64,000 bases of DNA from Cystobasidiomycetes sp. EMM_F5 (lineage: Eukaryota), in the NCBI GenBank assembly GCA_051047955.1, contig JBPGPT010000002.1:992001-1056000 (forward strand), given 5' to 3'. Position 1 is the stretch's first letter; every line of letters begins with the position of its first letter. The position numbers and the translations under genes are program-made. Positions 21,686 through 51,087 of the stretch are shown in pieces. The notes below the pieces were generated by a model, which had not been told where the DNA came from, did no database searches, and saw only the letters and a list, made by a program, of their open reading frames with translations.

Positions 21686-21694
21686 ATATATGTT
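21686..21694 (+). promoter_or_regulatory. TATA-like element ATATATGTT upstream of tRNA-Ser
   Basis: Starts 40 nt before the mature 5' end. The same 9-mer starts 38 nt before the tRNA-Leu gene. Confidence 0.55.
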
Positions 21695-21725: not shown

Positions 21726-21829
21726 ATCGCTTTGCCTGAGTGGTTATAGGGTGTGATTCGAATAAACACCATGTGTTTCATATCATCTCATGGGTTCTGC
21801 CCGCACAGGTTCAAATCCTGTAGGCGATG
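21726..21829 (+). tRNA. tRNA-Ser(CGA) with 22-nt canonical intron (21763-21784)
   Basis: Acceptor ATCGCTT/AGGCGAT, discriminator G, D-arm CCT..AGG, anticodon CGA at 21759-21761, long variable arm GGGTTCTGCCC, T-arm ACAGG-TTCAAAT-CCTGT. One U:U mismatch in the anticodon stem. Confidence 0.92.
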
Positions 21830-21834
21830 TTTTT
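21830..21834 (+). terminator. Pol III oligo(T) terminator of tRNA-Ser
   Basis: TTTTT directly after the discriminator base. Confidence 0.8.
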
Positions 21835-30962: not shown

Positions 30963-33900
30963 ATGTCGGGCCCTGATGCTGAGGATGGCGATGCCATACA
31001 GTGGGTCTCTATGGTTTCGCTGAGCTGGCAGGCTGAGGCTGACTGTGTGATTGACGTTTTCGTCAAAAGCTCGTTTGGATCTCTGCATGCTCTGCTCGGG
31101 GCGCGAGCTGGACAGCTGACTCCAGCAGCAGAGCGGTTCCTGCAGCAACAGACGGACGCTCTTGGTCGATGCTACGATGTCTTTGGGCAGGGCAGCGTTG
31201 TTTCGAAAGCCAAGGAGCAGCAGGATGGCAGTAAACAGGAAACAAACGAAAAGGAGCTGGCAAAACAGATAGCGGAACGATTCGGCATCAACCAAGACAG
31301 CGCGAGTGGCCTCCTGCGCTCGTTCCGAAACGAGCGCGGCGATAATGTCGCGACCGACTTGCCGCCAGAATGTCTCAAGGACGAGAGCTTGTGGAGCCAG
31401 ATCAACGGTTTCTTCTTCGACGAGAGGCTCAATGTCATCCTTACCGTGGCTCTCTTGCTGCGCATAGGTAAGTCCGCAATACAATCCCTTACATTGGACA
31501 GCGTTTGAATCAATACCCGATCTTTTGCCAATAGGTGACGGCGAGGATATTGTCTCTCAAGAAACGCTGCAAGCAACCCTGCAACCAATCATTACCGATG
31601 CATTCACAAAAGCCGTTCTCAGCAGGATCACCGCCCTGTCAATCCTCGCCGTGCCAGATACAGCATTCCCAGCAGACTGGGCCAAGCAGTATCTACGCGA
31701 ACAGAAAGCTCTCCTGGAAGTTTATTTCCTACTCTTCTACAACAACATACGTCCAAATGGCAAAACCTTGATAGAAGTGCTCGAAGCCGTCCAGCAGATG
31801 GCTTGGGGGGAGAAGCAGGTCAACGAATCATACTTTGATAGTGAAGCGTATCTCTTGGCCTCGGAAATTTCAACACTGCTCTCGATAATACTGCTCGAGC
31901 ATCTCAACCTCGAATCTGCAATACAACCCAATACGCCAGACTTTGACACACAATCGACTGCAGCAAACGATCCGGCCGAGCTAATTCAGGCTGTAAATCT
32001 GGAAAAGATACATACGCATATCTGTGCTCTGTATGAGGCACACCCCCAGCGTGCTGGTCCGGCTGTGATAGGCTGGGCATTTATTCTGTCCCTGGTTACA
32101 GAAAGCCTGTCTGCGAGGCATACACTAGACGCGTATTCTGCAGTGGCGTGCGATCTTCTTCCGCTGGATCAGCAACCGCACGACGCGCAGGGTCGCTTAT
32201 TCAAAGATGGTAATAGGAATCAGCGACCCTTTTACCAGGCATTAACAGAGACGGCTGTAAACCAGCTTGCTGCTGTTGAGGGTATACGGACAGTCTTGAC
32301 ATCCCCACTCTTTCGACCTAGTGCAGTTGAAGACGGACCGCAGCACGCTAGCATCGACCCAATGATCCCAGGTTATTTATCGATAATGCACTCACTCATT
32401 TCGGCAGTGCCCAAACTTGTTCATCCAGCGTACTTATCGCCCACCGACTTTGATGCGTTAGTAGAGGCATTCGTAGCGCTCTACAGCAATTCCGCTGCTG
32501 GCATGCTTCGCGGACATTTCTGGAACCTGTTTGACACGAACGACGAGGCGGTATTTCAAGGGGAGTGGGACATCCTTGAAGTAGCAAAGAGGCGATTTCC
32601 TCTGGTCCTCACTCCCTTTCTGCGTATGCTCCACGCCGTTTCCGGAGGTCCGACGATGTTCCATTACTCGCCGCGAGCTGATGAACATCGCGATGAGGAG
32701 GAGCTGTCCATGCGATGTTGCCTGAAAGTCCACGACTATCTGGCTTCAGTCTCCTCAATAGCACAGGCAATGCCAGCGTCTTCGCCCCTGGTCCCTCTTC
32801 CGTACGAATCTTCAACCGACTTCGACGCCGGCCCGATGGATGTAACAGCTCTGCGCGAAATCTCCGTGACAGACTCCGTCAGTATCCCCACGGGCACTCC
32901 TGGTCGTATCGTCAGCAACGTCGGAGAAAGGCCCCCCATAATCCTATGGGATCTTGCCTCAACGTACCAAGGCGGATACTCCGTGTGGCAATTGTTTGGG
33001 GATATTCTGGCAGACGTAGTTGACGGCGACGAAAAGGCCAATCCTTCAAGGAAACGCGAAGTCATGTCCTCAAAAGGAACGGATGATGTTTTTTGTGATG
33101 ACAGCAGACAGCTGACGAAACTATCAGGGAAGGTTGTTGGAACCAATGAGGAGGACCAAGCTACCACTTTGGCCACTATATTCAGCATGTATGCAGTCTT
33201 GTCGGAAAGTATAAATGTAGCAAGCTGATGCTTCTCCTCAGTACGCGAGATATACTGTCCCATGATCCAGGCAGGGCCGACAAACTAGTTCAAACGATGT
33301 CAGCCGGCAGCTCTCGCGACTTCGTAGAGCTTCTGTTCCGCGCCAAGGAGAAGTATCTGGCTCAGCAATCTGCCGAGGAAAAAGTCATACTGCCTCTCCT
33401 GAGTCTCCTTGGCTTTTTGCTGCCTATGTATCCTGGACTCATCTGGACGCATTTGAGGGGGACTACCTCGCTTTACCCAGCAGGGACGGATGGAGGACGA
33501 ATGATCGGCTCGGTTGAATATAGTAAAGGCAGATCCATCCTACTTCACGACAAGCTCGCAGGCAAATACTCCATCACTCTGGCTACTGTCGATCTCGCTC
33601 GAAGCTTGTTCTTAGAGGCGCAACGATCTTCGATTGTAGATCCTCCTAGACTGTCAGAGCTCAAGGCACAAGTGTTGAAGCGCGCTATGCGATGGTGTGC
33701 GGACAGCGTGTGGATCAACCTGAACAGCTGGCGCTTTGTCGACATCAAGCAGAAGATGAAGCTACAAGCTAGATTAGCTGCCCTCTTCACTCTAGTGCTA
33801 GAGGAAAGCGACGTTGCCGACAGCGTACGAGGAGAGGCCGTCACATCAGCTCTCGACCTCATCCTCATAGCTTTCATAAAGTCGCCCACTCCCAGCCATC

Positions 33901-36900
33901 TGGCACCATTGACATTCACGATATCGACTTACTATGACACGATCTTTGCCTTTGCCAAATCGGGAAGGACATTGGAAAGACTCGCTGCTGAGCATAGTCT
34001 CGAGGCAATCCTCCAACTAGCCTATCAACTACTATCTATGTCTCGCTCCATCGTGCCGGACCAGCCAACGCTGCTAGAACGACAATCGTTCTCGTTTCAA
34101 CTAGGCAACGGTAGAAACCTGATTGCCAGCTTGCAAGCTCTCATATCTGCCAATTTTCGGCCAGAAATAGCGATGCTTTCGGCTTCCATCCTGACGAGGT
34201 TAGCCTATCTTGCAAAAGACTGGGGTGTCGCTTCCGAGAGGCCCTCATTCCTTGCGCATCTGGCTGGTCCGTCTGAAAGCGAAGCTGTTGTACGCAACCT
34301 CCTCACAATCGCTGTGGACAGATTTATAGACGAAAGGGTGCAGGACGCAGTTTGGGGACTGATGATTGGCATCATTCAGTATCAACCCGGGCTGGGCACC
34401 TTGCTAGTCTGCGGTCCGCAAGCCTACGCTCGATTGCTGTCGGCAGAAGTTTCTGAGCATAGCCAGCCCAATACAGCCCTCGCCTTAGCAGTCGAGGTCG
34501 TACTCGGTTGGCAAAGTGCGTGGCTGGACCAGCCGAGTTTACTTAGTCGAGCATTGGATCTTCTGCTTGCCGTCTGGGATAGCGACAATGATTGGACAGC
34601 GTACATCGACAAGTGCCGAATGCGAACGTCTCTCTGGCAAGCCGTCTGCCAGATCCTCCTGAAGCCTGTCACGCCCGACTCTGGTAGACGTGATCTTATA
34701 CTCAAGTCGCACCCCGCAACCGACTCAAGCTCTGCGACCGTCATAAGCCTTTGTCATCGTCTGACTACTCAGGTAGCCGCAGCCAAACTGCTTGTGCTTG
34801 ATTTAGCACGATCTGAGTTTGCAAATGTGTCGAAAGTGCATGAAAGCACAACTGTCCTGCGAACGCAATTCGGAGTCAACGATTCTATTACGTCAATTTT
34901 GCAAGGTTTATCGACTATACCACTCGATGCTACCGAGTCGATGCATCTTCAGTCCAGACTACAGGACATCTCCCCACGTCTCAACTTCCGTGCCTTCGAA
35001 AAACCTGTTTATCATTTTGACACCAACCGACAATATGGCGAAGATTACCTGATCTCGTTGACCCTTCTACGGCCTCGGCTTGATGGTTGCCACTCGAAAC
35101 AGCATGGTGAAGCTGTAGTCGAGGCCTTTCGGGCTACGATTCGGCTTAACGAATCGTGGTCCATCTACGAGACAACGTCGCAACTGCTCAGCTTGTGGAC
35201 TAGTCTTCTTCAGCACGGGAGATCGGTACTCGCATCGATGACCAACTATCCGCAGGAGCTGTCCAACGCAGCCATAGCTATCAGTGCGTCTGCTGCGACA
35301 TCTGATCTTGGCACAGATATCGCGAAGGAGTATCAGCGCAAGAGGCTGTGCTTGCTGCGTCTAGTAGTCGATCAATTCAGCCGCCTCAACGTCCCTTTCA
35401 ACGATTCTCAATTGGCTGCCTTGCTTGCTCACCTTGCGGCTTTACTCGGAAATATAACAATGAATGACACATTCGAGTCGGAGTCAAAGGGAGGATCTCC
35501 GTTGGCAGTCTTGGCATTCGAGATCGCAGCAATCATTTTACGTTTTCAATGCACACCTCCTCCCGCGACAGAACCTAAAGCATCGCTCCAGTCTAGCATT
35601 GAAACGATTACGTGTCTATCTTTGCATGCGGCACGGACAGCTCTGGCAGCCTGTACTGTCGTTGGTGCAAAAGCAAGTCGCGCATCAACTTTGGACAGTA
35701 TCGTCTCTACGCTCCGTAGCGCATTCGCTGCGGATGTGCCGCCCCGCCCGGCACTCTGGGCCGCGCAATGTCAAGACCTGGACTTGTTCAATGTGCTCTC
35801 TCGTTATCTGGCCGCGTGTCCAGCTGACAAAGCAAGTGCAGAGGCCGGTAGACTGGCTCTGGATCTTGCAGCGTTACTCGCGGCCGATCCTGTTGCGGCA
35901 GAACGGATAGCATTGAGCGGAATCACGTATGCAATCTGTACCAGTCCTCTCAGTGCTGCCGTAATAGATCCGGTCGCTCGAAAAGCGCATGATGCAGGGC
36001 TGCTCTTATCACAGGTATGGTGCTCAACCCTGGCCCTCGAGACTCAGATGATCAGCCACATGAGTCATAGCGTTATTTTCGCTCAGGAGGATACAGCGCC
36101 GTTCATTCTGTACTACCAAGGCCTCCTGAACGACTGTCTGCTCTCCTTGGAAGAGGATGCTCTGTCGCTGTCACAGCTCAATGAACTTCACCTTTGTGCC
36201 ACCTATACGAAAGCTGTCACACCCAGCATCCGATACATCGAAGATGTCGAGCATCTCTTCCTCGCCCTTGTCGACGGCTCACTGCATGTTGTCCAGAAGC
36301 TGCTGCATTTCCTGCATCATCCCAATAGGCTTGTTGATAGCATCACGCCTGCCGACGCTGTCGAGAGGTTATGGCTGCAAACCGACTCATCGGCAAGCGA
36401 TACTGCCCCTCTTTCGAATTTAGCGGAACGTCCCGTGGCGGGCGCCCTCCTACAAAAGATTCTAGGAGTTTCGGAAGTCCTCATCACAATGCTTGTACAC
36501 TACACATCTACATTTTCGATAATTGCACGCGATCCTTTGGACTGGCCAGGCGACAGGCTGCTTTTACAGGCTGTAAGTAGCTGTTTTAAAATTGTGACAC
36601 GGACTTACGCAATGTCACAGGTGGACGACGACGACGAGGGCGGTCCAGCTACTGTCGGAACGTTGCTGAGCCTAGCTGCTTTCTGCACCGAAGTCCTCCG
36701 ACAGAGCGGGTCCAAGAAGACTCACGTAAAATCGAAAGTCGGGACCGCGCCTCTTTCCTTCGACCTCGAGCGCTTTCAGGGTATGGCAACATACCTTCGC
36801 GAGGCCTCCCTTCTTCTCGCTTGCTCGCAGACAGGACTTGCTGTCCATGCTGTGAATAGCTTGGGCATGAGCGACCGGACATCGGAAGACGCCCGGGAGG

Positions 36901-37040
36901 GACTTTACGCTCTGAGCAGACGAATTTTGGATGCATTAAACACGACTGGTGGGGACTCCAAAATGCAGCAGTCCAAAGCATTTTTTAGTACGCTGGCGGC
37001 GTTCATGCAGCGGTCGCAAACTATGTTGCAGAATGCATAG
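30963..37040 (+). CDS. NUP188: Nucleoporin Nup188-like large helical scaffold protein
   Basis: About 1950 aa, Leu-rich, few introns. FFDERL, WAKQYLREQKALLEVYFLLFY and IGWAFIL blocks recall the Nup188 N-terminal region. Confidence 0.75.
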
Positions 37041-39777: not shown

Positions 39778-41005
39778 TCACAATTCCCCAACAATCTTTT
39801 GCGCTCCAGTCGAAGCTGCACTGTAGACTGAGCTCGCGCTGGCTGAGACTACCGACGCAGCACTCTCCACAGTTTTCGAGGCATCGGCCGCAACAGATGC
39901 ACCAGAAGCGTAAGCCTGCTTGGCGGCCTTGTCTGCTTCTCCTGCTACGCTCGCAGCCGAACTGGAAGCCTGTGCAGCGGCGGTTTCAGCGGCGCTGCTA
40001 ACGACCGACGATACGGAGCTGGCGGAAGCGCCCGCTTGCGAAATGATGCTTGCGGCGCTGGCGGAGGCTCCGTTGAAAGCGGCCAGGATATTTTGTCTGA
40101 TCTGAAGGTCGTCTAGCTGTTTGCCTGCCATAGTACCACGTTTGCTAGCAAGCTTTTGAAGGCGTTGAAACTCCTTTTGTGCCCAGTCTGATGACGACGC
40201 CGCCTTTTCGAACACCTTAAGGTAGTAGGTGGCTGCACTGACTTGGGCAGGGACTTGTAGTTTGGCAGCGAGCTGTTTGGCTTGGCTGAGGATTGTTGTG
40301 CGAGCGTCATCAGTCGAGCCGAGGTATGAGGCAAGGAGAGCATCGAAGTCGGGAAGTCGGCCGGCCTGGAATATCATCAGAATGATGCAAATTGTTTCGT
40401 GTCAGAGGAAAGTCACCGACAATGTCATTGAGTAATCCTCCTGTGCTGCGATGCGTGCCTGCTTGCTCGTTGATGTACTCCAGAAAAGCGGACTCGGTTC
40501 TGCCAGATTGGTAGTCGAGCGGTGCTGAGCCGTCGGCGGGGAAGAACTGTAACATCGTCAGCTAAGTCCATGCGCGCTAGCATGCGAGGTCACCTTGATA
40601 GTGGGATATCCCTTTACTCCAAATCTCTCGGCCGTTGGGCGATTGTCTGCGTTGTCTGCGTCGAGTTGCCCGATAAGAACCTAGAGAAGAAGTGTTGGTG
40701 GCAGGCTATTGCGGTCGATTTGCGACCCACGCTGTCCTCATCTGCAAAGTCCTTTCCCAATGCCTCCCACGTCGGCTCAAGCGACTTGCAATGACCGCAC
40801 CACGGCGCAAAGAAGGCGACCAGTGCATTCTTGCCATTGATTGCAGAGTCAAAGTTGGCGGCAGTGAGTTTAGTCGTCGACTGTGCTTAAAGCGTGAGTT
40901 GCAACCCAATGACGACGTGGCACTTCGTACCTTGACGTCTTCAAGTCCGGCCTGAACGCCAGCGAGGAGGGAGCCAATAACAACTGCGTAGTTTGTGAAT
41001 CTCAT
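39778..41005 (-). CDS. Protein disulfide isomerase family: signal peptide, one WCGHC thioredoxin domain, ERp29-C-like domain, Ala/Ser-rich tail
   Basis: MRFTNYAVVIGSLLAGVQA, FFAPWCGHCKSLEP, FGVKGYPTIK, DYQSGRT, AGRLPDFD, YYLKVFEK, DDLQIRQNILAAF. Ends KIVGEL. Confidence 0.88.
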
Positions 41006-41422
41006 GATGCAGATGATGGGGTTTAGTTGAACCAGCTTGCGAATTGAATGCGTTGTCAGCGCCCCCAAATGAATAATGATCGAAGAAGAAACCCAGATGT
41101 ACACGAGCACGACTATTACAGCAAGCTCTTTGTGCGTACTTCTTGGTGTCGATTGGCCGTACAGTCCGCTTATATGCCCGCTTCACGACCGCTCTGTGCA
41201 AATGGCCATGTAATCGGCTACCCAACCGCCAACGCAACCACAAAAAATCGGGCAATAGTAATTCTCGACAAGCAAATACATGTACGGATACCACTGTAGC
41301 TGCTCTACATGACTGCGTATTTTGTTTGAGCAAAAGTTGCGAAGTTGTCGTTCGACACCAGGCAATGCGGAATGAGAAGCAGCGGAGCGGGAGAATAGGC
41401 AACACCATGCGAAAAAGAATGG

Positions 41423-41427
41423 AAAAA
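41423..41427 (-). terminator. Pol III oligo(T) terminator of tRNA-Leu
   Basis: TTTTT on the minus strand, 4 nt after the discriminator A (41432). Confidence 0.75.
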
Positions 41428-41451
41428 GTAATGAAGACAGAGGGATTCGAA

Positions 41452-41508
41452 CTAGATAGAGCGCATTCATCAGTTCTACACCGCTACCAATTAGAGCCTC
41501 TAACGCAC
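41452..41508 (-). other. Spliceosomal-type intron in tRNA-Leu T-arm (position 53/54), 57 nt
   Basis: GTGCGT...ACTGAT...TAG. Confidence 0.88.
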
Positions 41509-41530
41509 CCCTCGCCCCGAAAGACTAGAT

Positions 41531-41559
41531 ATCGGCGGTGTCACTCTATCGAGTGTAGT
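41531..41559 (-). other. Canonical tRNA intron (37/38) of tRNA-Leu, 29 nt
   Basis: One base 3' of the anticodon, no GT-AG ends, internal hairpin CACTC-GATA-GAGTG. Confidence 0.88.
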
Positions 41560-41572
41560 CCTTAGTCTAGCG

Positions 41573-41626
41573 CTGATCTTATCATATCAGAACGGTTGTA
41601 ATATCGTCGGTAGCATTGTGACTAAC
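41573..41626 (-). other. Spliceosomal-type intron in tRNA-Leu D-stem (position 24/25), 54 nt
   Basis: GTTAGT...TCTGAT...CAG. Confidence 0.88.
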
Positions 41627-41637
41627 CCTTAGACCGC

Positions 41638-41697
41638 CTGATAATGATTTTCATTTAGTCCGAATTCCTCATGAGCGAAGAATTGGTAGGAACTGAC
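41638..41697 (-). other. Spliceosomal-type intron in tRNA-Leu D-loop (position 14/15), 60 nt
   Basis: GTCAGT...ACTAAA (weaker branch-site match)...CAG. Confidence 0.85.
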
Positions 41698-41740
41698 TCG
41701 GCCATATCTCCGATATTGATGGAGTCCGTTCGGGTGCTGT

Positions 41741-41749
41741 AACATATAT
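41741..41749 (-). promoter_or_regulatory. TATA-like element ATATATGTT upstream of tRNA-Leu
   Basis: Starts 38 nt upstream of the mature 5' end; identical 9-mer upstream of tRNA-Ser. Confidence 0.55.
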
Positions 41750-42300
41750 AACCCGACAACATGCAATTTTTTCTGCAGCAGCTTCTCCGCTTTTATTTTC
41801 GAAAAGCCAACCGCGGAATATCTCTTTCGTGGGTACTTCTTTCCGCTTATGCACCTCTCACCCTGATGACAACAACAGCCACATATTCCGGCTTCAGCGA
41901 TGCTACTAATTTGTCAAGCCTAAATTCAACATTCTTCGAAAATGCAATTAGCTTCGGATCTAGAAGATTTTGCCCGGTTCGCAGGTATATTCTTATATGT
42001 ACGCCTTGTATTTACAACGGGTACTCTCGCTGCTGATCAACCTCACGTTTTTGGGGCAGTTTCAAGACCGGCGTTGCGGTGAAGCGAACCCTCCCTTTGT
42101 TAGAACCACTTTTAGCTTATTCTAACAGGCTGACATATTTGTACATTGCTAACTAGTTTTCAAGCGAGCTCCTCTATGATCACAAGTCCGCGGCAGACCC
42201 CACGAATTCCCCCACGGGCCGTGATATTGTCTGACAATTCCTTCGCTTCTGCTGGATCCCATCAGGACAGACTGTGCGATTCACTCTTACCTTTTCACCA

Positions 42301-43383: not shown

Positions 43384-44283
43384 CTATTCAGGCCTGTGCA
43401 ACCTCTCTTGGTACGCCGCCCAGCCGGCATTTCTATATTCTCTAGCAGTCTCGGCTATCCTGTCGGCCTTGCTATAGATTCCTCTCCCGACAATGATAAT
43501 GTCGCAGCCGTCTCTGGCGACGACCTCGTGAGGCGTACGATATTGTTGGCCTAGCTCGCCATTCGAAGCTGCCAATTGTACGCCCGGTGTCAGGACTAGG
43601 AAATCTTCACTGTTGTGCTCGCTCATTCGATGCTGAGCTATGAACCCCATTACAAATTCTTGATTCCTCCGGGCCATCTCGAGCGTCTTCTTTGTGTACT
43701 CGCCTGTTGCCAGAGAACCTGCACTGCTCATTTCTGCCAAAAGCAGGAGACCCCTGTTTTGCGGCAATCCGACTTTGGCCAGACCCGCAATGATTCCCTC
43801 GCCTGGAACAGTATGAGCATTCACGACATGAGCCCACGATGCGATATTGTACACGCCAGAGGAATATTGAAGCGAGACGGTATTGCCAATGTCGGCGAAT
43901 TTGCGGTCCTCTATGCGACCAGCGTCAGTCACGAGCGAAGACACGTAGATTATGCATATATCACACCAAATATCAGAAAGTCATGTTGTTTGCTCAGTTC
44001 CGTTAGTCGCCGTGTTAGTTCTGGCGTAAAGTCCTCGACAATGTCAATATGCGTCTGATTGCATTACTTCAGCACAGCAAGCTTGTTGATCTTGCCCGCA
44101 ACCTACCTTGACCATGCATAGGAACGGAGCGGCAGTTTCAACAATCCTGATAATCTCGTCGCTTTTCGTCACGTCCACCGACAGGCATAGATTGGATTGC
44201 TTCCGCTCCATCAGCTCGAGCAGCTCTCTTGCCAGAGGATGTCGATGCTTTCTCGCCCGTTCAGCATAAGTTTGCGTATTCAT
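43384..44283 (-). CDS. URA3: Orotidine-5'-phosphate decarboxylase
   Basis: [63 protein letters not shown]. Confidence 0.97.
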
Positions 44284-49750: not shown

Positions 49751-51087
49751 TCAAGCTTGCCGAACTTCGTACAGTGCGCAAAAGCCTTTGAGTGATGAAA
49801 GGCGCGGTTTGTCATGTTTAAATTTGACCAGCTCTGCGTTTATGCCGGCTTGCGGGATTGCGTTAAGGTGCCCGAGACGCTGCATAGTCGCTGTATTGTC
49901 TTCTTCCATGTCACGGCCATTCGATATATCGAAAGAGGAGAGGTCCCCGAGATATAGTGCTGGAGGCGGTTCTTTTCTACAGGGCTGCCTTGGAGTATCT
50001 GAAGCATGGCGTTGTTTGCCAGTACGTGCGGCAATTCCGCTGCCTGTACCGCGCTGCTCGAACAAGATGGGCGTTTGTGGCTTCTTGTTGTAGACAGAGC
50101 TGCGTACGCCAGCACCTAGCCTGCATCCTCAAATCCCGTCATTAGACTTGAGGACCAAGCTAGTATCGAATGCTCGACGTACAATTTCTCAAAGTCATCC
50201 GTTTTTTTCCAGGACCCTTTATCTTTTGCTATCCCTGCAGAGCCATAGCCGCAGCTCGAGGCTTTCGACTGTTCCTTCCCGATACCAAAGTAAGCGTCTA
50301 GGACGGTAGTACCTTGCTTTGCACCATTCGTGGCATCAGCGGGAATGGGCGTAGTCTCTGATGGGCTATGATTAAAGTCGGGTAGTGCCGCTCTCGAGGC
50401 AGCTCTTGGCTTGATACGTAATGCGAGACCAACTCGTCTCAAAGTGAATCTCTTGTTGGTAGGAACGCCTTTGGAAATAGAGTGACCGTGATGCGCTTGC
50501 AGAGAAGCATAATGATACTGCTTGGCGGACACGGCAGTCTTCGGAGAGAGCGGGCTTCGAGGGCTTTTCCTTGCTCCTATTGAACCTATATCAAAAGCCT
50601 CTAATCTGGGGGAAGCCGACTTTTCGGGAGACGAAGTCGAGAAGCGTTGCCACAGCTCCTGCCCAAAAGTAGAGTGTCGAGCAGACACATTATCACCAGG
50701 TTCGGGTGCTAAATCCCGACCGAGAGAGGCAGTGGATGAGTTGATATATGTAGTTGCCTCAGACGAACGATCCTGCTCGACATTCCATGGACTTCTGGAC
50801 TCGGGGCCCGGAAGCCTCATGAACGAAGACGGTAGAGCTGGTCTAAGGCGCGATCTTTGGACCCGTATAGGCCGATACTTGTCCTCGACAGACATCTTGC
50901 GTCGCGAGCTTAGGCCAATAAGACTAGTCTTGTCTTTGCCGGTTTCAAAGTCATCTGCCCAGAGAAGGCTGGTTGGCGAGGACGGCGAGGATGGGACGGC
51001 TTTGGATCTGCCCATTGTATCGAGATTACTCCGATGATTTGGGTGGAAATTTGGGGCGGAGCGGCTGCGACCCCTTTCAGTAGCCAA
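49751..51087 (-). CDS. Hypothetical Ser/Arg/Pro-rich disordered protein (boundaries uncertain)
   Basis: 323-aa ORF joinable through a GTACGT...CAG intron to ORF 49751-50065. No recognisable domain. Confidence 0.45.

Follow-up and report, generated by a model that had tools for sequence, protein, structure and literature searches.

Within the 64-kb window, by which we mean the whole stretch of DNA that was analysed, a gap of about 950 bp between two genes harbours, at 41423-41751 on the minus strand, a tRNA-Leu gene in five pieces, divided by three GT..AG introns and one canonical tRNA intron. An ERp29-like gene lies about 440 nt downstream on the same strand; its signal-peptide exon starts near 40990 and its product carries the Pfam ERp29 C-terminal domain (E=5.9e-24). 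The opposite edge of the gap may hold the start of a divergent plus-strand gene, at an ATG near 41943 that was read by eye. Elsewhere in the window a URA3-type OMP decarboxylase is encoded at 43384-43980 and a Nup188-like gene is found at 33150-37040. The URA3 protein has its best named relatives, at only 62-67% identity, scattered over Mucoromycota, chytrids, Basidiomycota and Taphrinomycotina, and for the Nup188-like protein there is a sole relative with 32% identity. Matches so distant and so scattered over the phyla, together with this lone Nup188-like relative, point to a fungus without close sequenced kin. A further URA3 relative (77% identical) and the sole Nup188-like relative are probably encoded on one ENA contig of 42,824 nt. 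This contig probably represents the syntenic region in a related organism, where an orthologue of the tRNA-Leu gene could be visible.

The five exon blocks of 14, 11, 13, 22 and 20 nt lie between 41711 and 41432, and all coordinates of this gene refer to the minus strand. Exon 1 (14 nt, 41698-41711) provides the 5' strand of the acceptor stem, U8 and the 5' strand of the D-stem up to A14. It is followed by intron 1 in the D-loop (60 nt, 41638-41697), which reads GTCAGT...ACTAAAT...CAG and has a branch-like A 18 nt from its 3' end. Exon 2 (11 nt, GCGGTCTAAGG, 41627-41637) comprises the D-loop with G18 and G19 and part of the 3' strand of the D-stem. Within this strand sits intron 2 (54 nt, 41573-41626; GTTAGT...TCTGATA...CAG, with the A 15 nt from the 3' end). 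Exon 3 (13 nt, 41560-41572) completes the D-stem and adds the 5' strand of the anticodon stem and the loop with the anticodon AAG and G37. The canonical tRNA intron (29 nt, 41531-41559), identified by ARAGORN, is located between positions 37 and 38, one base 3' of the anticodon, and does not have GT..AG ends. Exon 4 (22 nt, 41509-41530) contains the 3' strand of the anticodon stem, the long variable arm and the T-stem 5' strand GAGGG. Between positions 53 and 54 it is separated by intron 3, here called the T-arm intron (57 nt, 41452-41508; GTGCGT...ACTGATG...TAG, with the A 19 nt from the 3' end), from exon 5 (20 nt, 41432-41451), which holds the T-loop, the T-stem 3' strand, the acceptor 3' strand and the discriminator A.

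If the five exons are joined by their coordinates, ARAGORN recognizes an 82-nt tRNA-Leu(aag) with an acceptor stem of 7 bp, a D-stem of 3 bp, an anticodon stem of 5 bp and the T-stem GAGGG/CCCTC. Its D-loop contains GG, the T-loop reads TTCGAAT, the variable arm is long and the discriminator is A. Removing only the GT..AG segments yields the identical tRNA-Leu(aag), this time with a 29-nt intron at the canonical site (ARAGORN). In the unspliced locus no tRNA is found by ARAGORN, nor by Rfam at either gathering or E-value thresholds. As a chance control, one to three candidate segments (start GTNNG, end YAG, length 40-90 nt) were removed in every combination throughout the 64-kb window, both strands included. 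ARAGORN predicted a tRNA that bridged every junction in 3 of 30,839 combinations, all of them at the tRNA-Leu locus and differing solely in the chosen 3' end of intron 2. The split tRNA-Leu is not explained by chance, and the same GT..AG-removal scan of the window found no further split tRNA genes.

In order to compare the three extra introns with those of the surrounding protein genes, a local reference set was assembled from the window by ORF joining. It consists of 19 introns inferred from sequence, each with GTNNGT, CTRAY and YAG signals and flanked by two open frames of at least 50 codons that become joined. The median length of these inferred introns is 59 nt (n=19), close to the 60, 54 and 57 nt of the tRNA-Leu introns. 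The 5' hexamers of introns 1, 2 and 3 recur in the reference set (GTCAGT in 4/19, GTTAGT in 2/19 and GTGCGT in 1/19), and the 3' ends of the inferred introns are CAG in sixteen and TAG in three of the 19 cases, compared with CAG, CAG and TAG in the tRNA-Leu gene. Intron 2 and the T-arm intron match the U2-type consensus (GTNNGT, CTRAY 10-30 nt from the 3' end, YAG) in full. The branch-like site CTAAA of intron 1 is one base off CTRAY, so that this intron would fail the filter of the reference set. Taken together the three insertions look like local spliceosomal introns of the U2-type GT-AG class.

The three introns resemble neither one another nor the rest of the 64-kb window (blastn-short). 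An origin from introners or repeats was considered and finds no support, the non-self matches against the window and the other introns being at most 17 nt long. As a separate observation, 9 nt of intron 1 (CTACCAATT, 41681-41689) are exactly complementary to a stretch of the T-arm intron (AATTGGTAG, 41484-41492; both minus strand). This complementarity could pair the two introns in a precursor or could be due to chance.

Upstream of the gene lies the TATA-like element that had been noted in the first-pass annotation of this DNA, TATATATGTT at 41750-41741 on the minus strand, starting 37-39 nt before the mature 5' end. In fission yeast and plants such TATA-like elements are described as key to the transcription of tRNA genes (PMC11346459). 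A control is offered by the sole other tRNA gene found in the window, an ordinary plus-strand tRNA-Ser(CGA) that spans 21726-21829 (Rfam 41 bits; ARAGORN with intron option) and lies 20 kb from the tRNA-Leu gene. It has a canonical intron of 24 nt in the anticodon loop and contains no GT..AG introns. Its flanks carry ATATATGTT at 21686-21694 and a T5 run at 21830-21834, which starts at the first 3' flanking base. The 9-mer ATATATGTT is common to both genes and is found 40 nt before the 5' end of tRNA-Ser and 38 nt before that of tRNA-Leu. On both strands of the window together the 8-mer TATATGTT occurs twice, 37-39 nt upstream of the two tRNA genes, with 39 nt at tRNA-Ser, and on their sense strands; 0.82 occurrences are expected by chance in the window, and the chance of finding it in the 7-nt slot upstream of the second gene is estimated at about 5e-5. 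The placement of this TATA-like 8-mer is more than chance.

Despite 41 bits versus a gathering score of 29, the tRNA-Ser gene was missed by Rfam at the gathering threshold and by default ARAGORN, and was found solely with E-value thresholds in Rfam and the intron option of ARAGORN. A 13-mer typical of the D-arm of Leu and Ser tRNAs, GGTCTAAGGCGCG, is present at 50841 on the plus strand (region 50743-50853), about 90 nt downstream of the TATA-like GATATATGTAG, and falls within a minus-strand ORF of 327 aa. No split tRNA could be rebuilt at this site (0/2 and 0/80 combinations), which may be a chance match or a tRNA relic.

At the other end of the tRNA-Leu gene two T5 runs (41427-41423 and 41416-41412, minus strand) represent a putative Pol III terminator and its back-up. 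The first begins four bases past the discriminator A at 41432, in agreement with the TTTTT noted before, and a T5 within 14 nt or less after a random position of the window has P=0.005; its presence at the gene end is more than chance. Since the upstream element and the terminator are common to an ordinary tRNA-Ser gene, Pol III would be the more likely polymerase of tRNA-Leu(AAG).

The internal promoter, putatively of type 2 as in nuclear tRNA genes, was compared with the consensus sequences TRGYNNARNNG for the A box and RGTTCRANTCC for the B box, as they are given in PMC7954030. The first-pass annotation had stated that two introns fall inside the promoter boxes and that the intron ends rebuild these in the DNA, and the sequences it describes are present. 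The B box AGTTCGAATCC (41443-41453, minus strand) is composed of the terminal AG of the T-arm intron, which provides its first two letters, and TTCGAATCC of exon 5, and it is intact in the DNA with 11 of 11 positions of this consensus. The A-box-like sequence TGGCCGAGTCA (41694-41704, minus strand) joins TGGCCGA of exon 1 to GTCA of intron 1, the DNA from 41704 to 41693 reading TGGCCGAGTCAG. It fits 6 of the 7 specified positions; the final G, equivalent to G18, is lost, whereas the spliced RNA would fit all seven. From the A-like box to the B box the distance is 240 nt, as had been estimated. The layout is in full of the Pol III type, comprising the TATA-like element upstream, the A-like sequence as a candidate A box, the intact B box and the T5 runs, with no terminator inside.

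The claim that only insertions compatible with Pol III transcription were kept does not follow from these data. The 'rebuilding' of the boxes is not more than chance, because GT and AG ends are obligatory at these insertion sites: at the site between positions 53 and 54 the RG of the B box comes with the AG end of every intron, and the initial G of any GT satisfies R15 of the A box. The introns do contain no TTTT on the sense strand, as had been reported; no T4 or longer run occurs on this strand between 41802 and 41427, the gene body (41711-41432) included. TTTT is likewise absent from 17 of the 19 inferred reference introns and from 49% of random 280-nt stretches of the window (P=0.49). Its absence from the tRNA-Leu introns is not more than chance, and we reject it as a sign of selection. 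Because the box letters come automatically and TTTT-free introns are the local norm, a filtering by Pol III can not be read from the locus, and the argument for selection is weak. The comparison with the tRNA-Ser gene speaks for Pol III better than this argument does. T-rich introns do exist locally, as the putative first intron of the possible plus-strand gene at 41943 (GTATAT...GCTGATC...CAG, within 41943-42066, read by eye) holds TTTTT as well as TATATGT.

DNA contigs from four of six runs add a small amount of comparative data. Run X1 contributed one contig of 257 nt (depth 2.1), which is less than 90% alike and covers 41423-41658. All eight substitutions and the one placed deletion fall into intron 2 and the T-arm intron, and no difference was placed in exons 2-4 or in the canonical tRNA intron. 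For the interval 41458-41658 all eight placed differences are in GT..AG intron positions, for which the chance is (126/201)^8 or about 0.02, a value computed by hand and based on one low-depth contig. Both fully covered introns keep the 5' hexamers and YAG ends in X1, and the T-arm intron differs there in its branch region. In addition the contig has about 17 extra letters somewhere in 41423-41457, that is in the trailer, exon 5 or the last 6 nt of the T-arm intron; this interval was deduced by arithmetic from the from_end column of a table that does not give the exact place. From run X2 came a single contig of 151 nt, identical to the window over 41260-41410, a stretch outside the gene, and runs X5 and X6 contained no contig matching the locus. 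Scanning metagenome_contigs for the arrangement of introns 1 and 2, and then for intron 1 alone, gave no orthologues, and none were detected by intron arrangement in genome_contigs or viral_contigs. The comparative support for a live tRNA-Leu gene is thin.

We tentatively favour, with confidence just short of even, a nuclear tRNA-Leu(AAG) gene that is live and transcribed by Pol III and that has gained three spliceosomal introns beside its anticodon-loop intron. Transcription, the polymerase, the two splicing steps and their order are what we infer here. The TATA-like element at -37 would place TFIIIB, and TFIIIC would bind the B box, intact in the DNA, together with the A-like box 240 nt upstream. 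Pol III would then synthesize a precursor of about 295 nt, meeting no T run on its way and stopping at the T5 four bases past the gene. The three introns of 54-60 nt would be excised by the spliceosome through intron definition. Since the cloverleaf could fold only after spliceosomal splicing, RNase P, RNase Z and the tRNA splicing endonuclease and ligase, the latter two removing the 29-nt intron, would act afterwards. Two different splicing machines would thus probably act on one small RNA.

In favour of a live gene are the flawless exons, the complete introns, the flanks shared with a normal tRNA gene and the X1 differences, which are confined to the GT..AG introns. Several points speak against Pol III combined with the spliceosome. 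As a rule splicing goes together with Pol II transcription and a cap, and for a spliceosome to assemble, exons of 11 and 14 nt offer very little length. Moreover, the A-like box is without the G18 equivalent, the CTAAA of intron 1 is off CTRAY, and there is a single such locus in 64 kb, for which the X1 support amounts to one contig with about 17 extra letters near exon 5. The ERp29-like gene, a Pol II gene, also starts about 440 nt downstream on the same strand.

This neighbour leads to another possibility, namely that Pol II makes the precursor, either as a non-coding unit of its own or as the 5' region of the ERp29-like gene, and that RNase P and RNase Z release the tRNA after spliceosomal splicing. 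The recruitment of the spliceosome normally needs Pol II and a cap, the signal-peptide exon near 40990 begins about 440 nt downstream of the tRNA on the same strand, and a TATA box suits Pol II too. There is also a precedent in T. brucei, for which PMC7954030 describes tRNA-Sec as made by Pol II. The flanks and the B box nevertheless argue the other way: the upstream 9-mer is shared, at a corresponding distance, with the ordinary tRNA-Ser gene that lacks GT..AG introns, the two T5 runs are exactly at the place of a Pol III terminator (P=0.005), and the B box is intact in the DNA. We consider transcription by Pol II unlikely. Rather improbable, too, is that the locus represents a dead or dying tRNA-Leu copy into which intron-like DNA was inserted and which gives no working tRNA, the work being done by other tRNA-Leu(AAG) genes. 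The standard tRNA finders are blank at the locus, no orthologue with the same D-loop intron site is found in metagenome_contigs, genome_contigs or viral_contigs, and the X1 contig has its unplaced insertion of about 17 letters near exon 5, all of which would fit a decaying gene. Against a dead copy are the five flawless exons that give a canonical cloverleaf with a Leu-type discriminator A, the complete set of 5' site, branch-like site and 3' site in all three introns, the intact promoter and terminator signals, and the nine of nine placed X1 differences in GT..AG introns with none in exons 2-4 or the canonical intron.

It is still far less probable that the tRNA splicing endonuclease removes the three extra introns at bulge-helix-bulge motifs, as it would with ectopic introns of the tRNA type. 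Multiple introns in the D-arm and T-arm are known from that class only. When each intron was folded with 14 nt of flank on either side, however, the minimum-energy structures contained no bulge-helix-bulge, the cut sites not being located in 3-nt bulges across a 4-bp helix, and the reading was rejected on this ground. All three introns begin with GTNNGT and end with YAG, their branch-like CTRAN lies 15-19 nt before the end, and their lengths are within the range of local protein-gene introns (median 59 nt), features unexpected for bulge-helix-bulge introns.

The favoured reading, a Pol III-transcribed tRNA gene with spliceosomal introns, has its closest parallel in the U6 genes of fungi. In S. 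pombe the spliced intron of the Pol III-transcribed U6 gene holds the B block, and fungal U6 genes with up to four such introns are described (PMC5855946). [quoted passage not shown] In contrast to U6, the host RNA is a tRNA and has no known place near the catalytic centre of the spliceosome, which makes reverse splicing into a bound snRNA less obvious as the origin of the introns. A further difference is the presence of three such introns and a canonical tRNA intron in one small RNA, which would call for two splicing systems, one after the other.

Spliceosomal introns in the U1, U2 and U5 snRNA genes of Rhodotorula hasegawae and in rRNA genes, cited in PMC5855946, are similar in that GT-AG introns occur in conserved parts of structural RNAs. 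Here, however, the transcribing polymerase is Pol II or Pol I, and none of the genes encodes a tRNA. [quoted passage not shown] SNR6 and the tRNA-Leu gene have in common a long A-to-B distance, tolerated by TFIIIC in the case of SNR6, and a TATA box that positions TFIIIB in SNR6 and would do so in tRNA-Leu. They differ because the B block of SNR6 is located downstream of the terminator as described there, whereas the B box of tRNA-Leu has its normal place in the T-arm and the introns make up the 240 nt.

Comparable fragmentation is found in the multi-intron tRNA genes of Cyanidioschyzon merolae, nucleomorphs and archaea, which contain bulge-helix-bulge introns cut by the endonuclease. There, as in tRNA-Leu, several introns in the D-arm and T-arm hide the gene from tRNA finders, but the introns of tRNA-Leu carry spliceosomal signals and show no bulge-helix-bulge in their folds. 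An artificial counterpart was reportedly constructed by Kohrer, Vogel and Domdey (EMBO J 1990), an engineered yeast pre-tRNA from which the pre-mRNA pathway removed an inserted intron of the actin pre-mRNA. It resembles the proposed tRNA-Leu case as a Pol III tRNA precursor that serves as spliceosome substrate, and differs from it in being artificial and in having one intron, inserted in the anticodon loop. Multi-intron and disrupted tRNA genes are also the subject of PMC3978253, according to its abstract.

A literature search, carried out largely outside subscription journals, found no account of a tRNA gene with spliceosomal introns. As structural RNAs that carry introns of the mRNA type, the U6 review names U6, U1, U2, U5 and rRNA (PMC5855946), a short list which a tRNA would join if our reading is true. 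According to the introduction of a paper from 2025, spliceosomal introns belong to transcripts of Pol II, mRNAs among them, and the intron types have no relation to each other at all (PMC12530127). Textbooks and this introduction keep spliceosomal and tRNA introns on separate kinds of RNA, and a gene with both would break this separation. The sequence features noted in the first-pass annotation are confirmed by our analysis, and their Pol III interpretation is partly supported.

If true, the gene would be a natural test of the extent to which splicing can do without Pol II and a cap, and it raises the question by which route introns enter an RNA outside the spliceosome. Because both ARAGORN and Rfam miss the tRNA-Leu gene, the tRNA sets of such genomes would look incomplete. 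It is possible, and we hold this a little more hesitantly than the reading of the single gene, that tRNA precursors made by Pol III are routine substrates of the spliceosome in this lineage, an uncapped RNA of about 295 nt being spliced three times across exons of 11 and 14 nt and then once by endonuclease and ligase. TATA-directed placement of TFIIIB would let such genes tolerate introns inside their promoters, and their invisibility to tRNA finders may explain 'missing' tRNA genes in some genomes.
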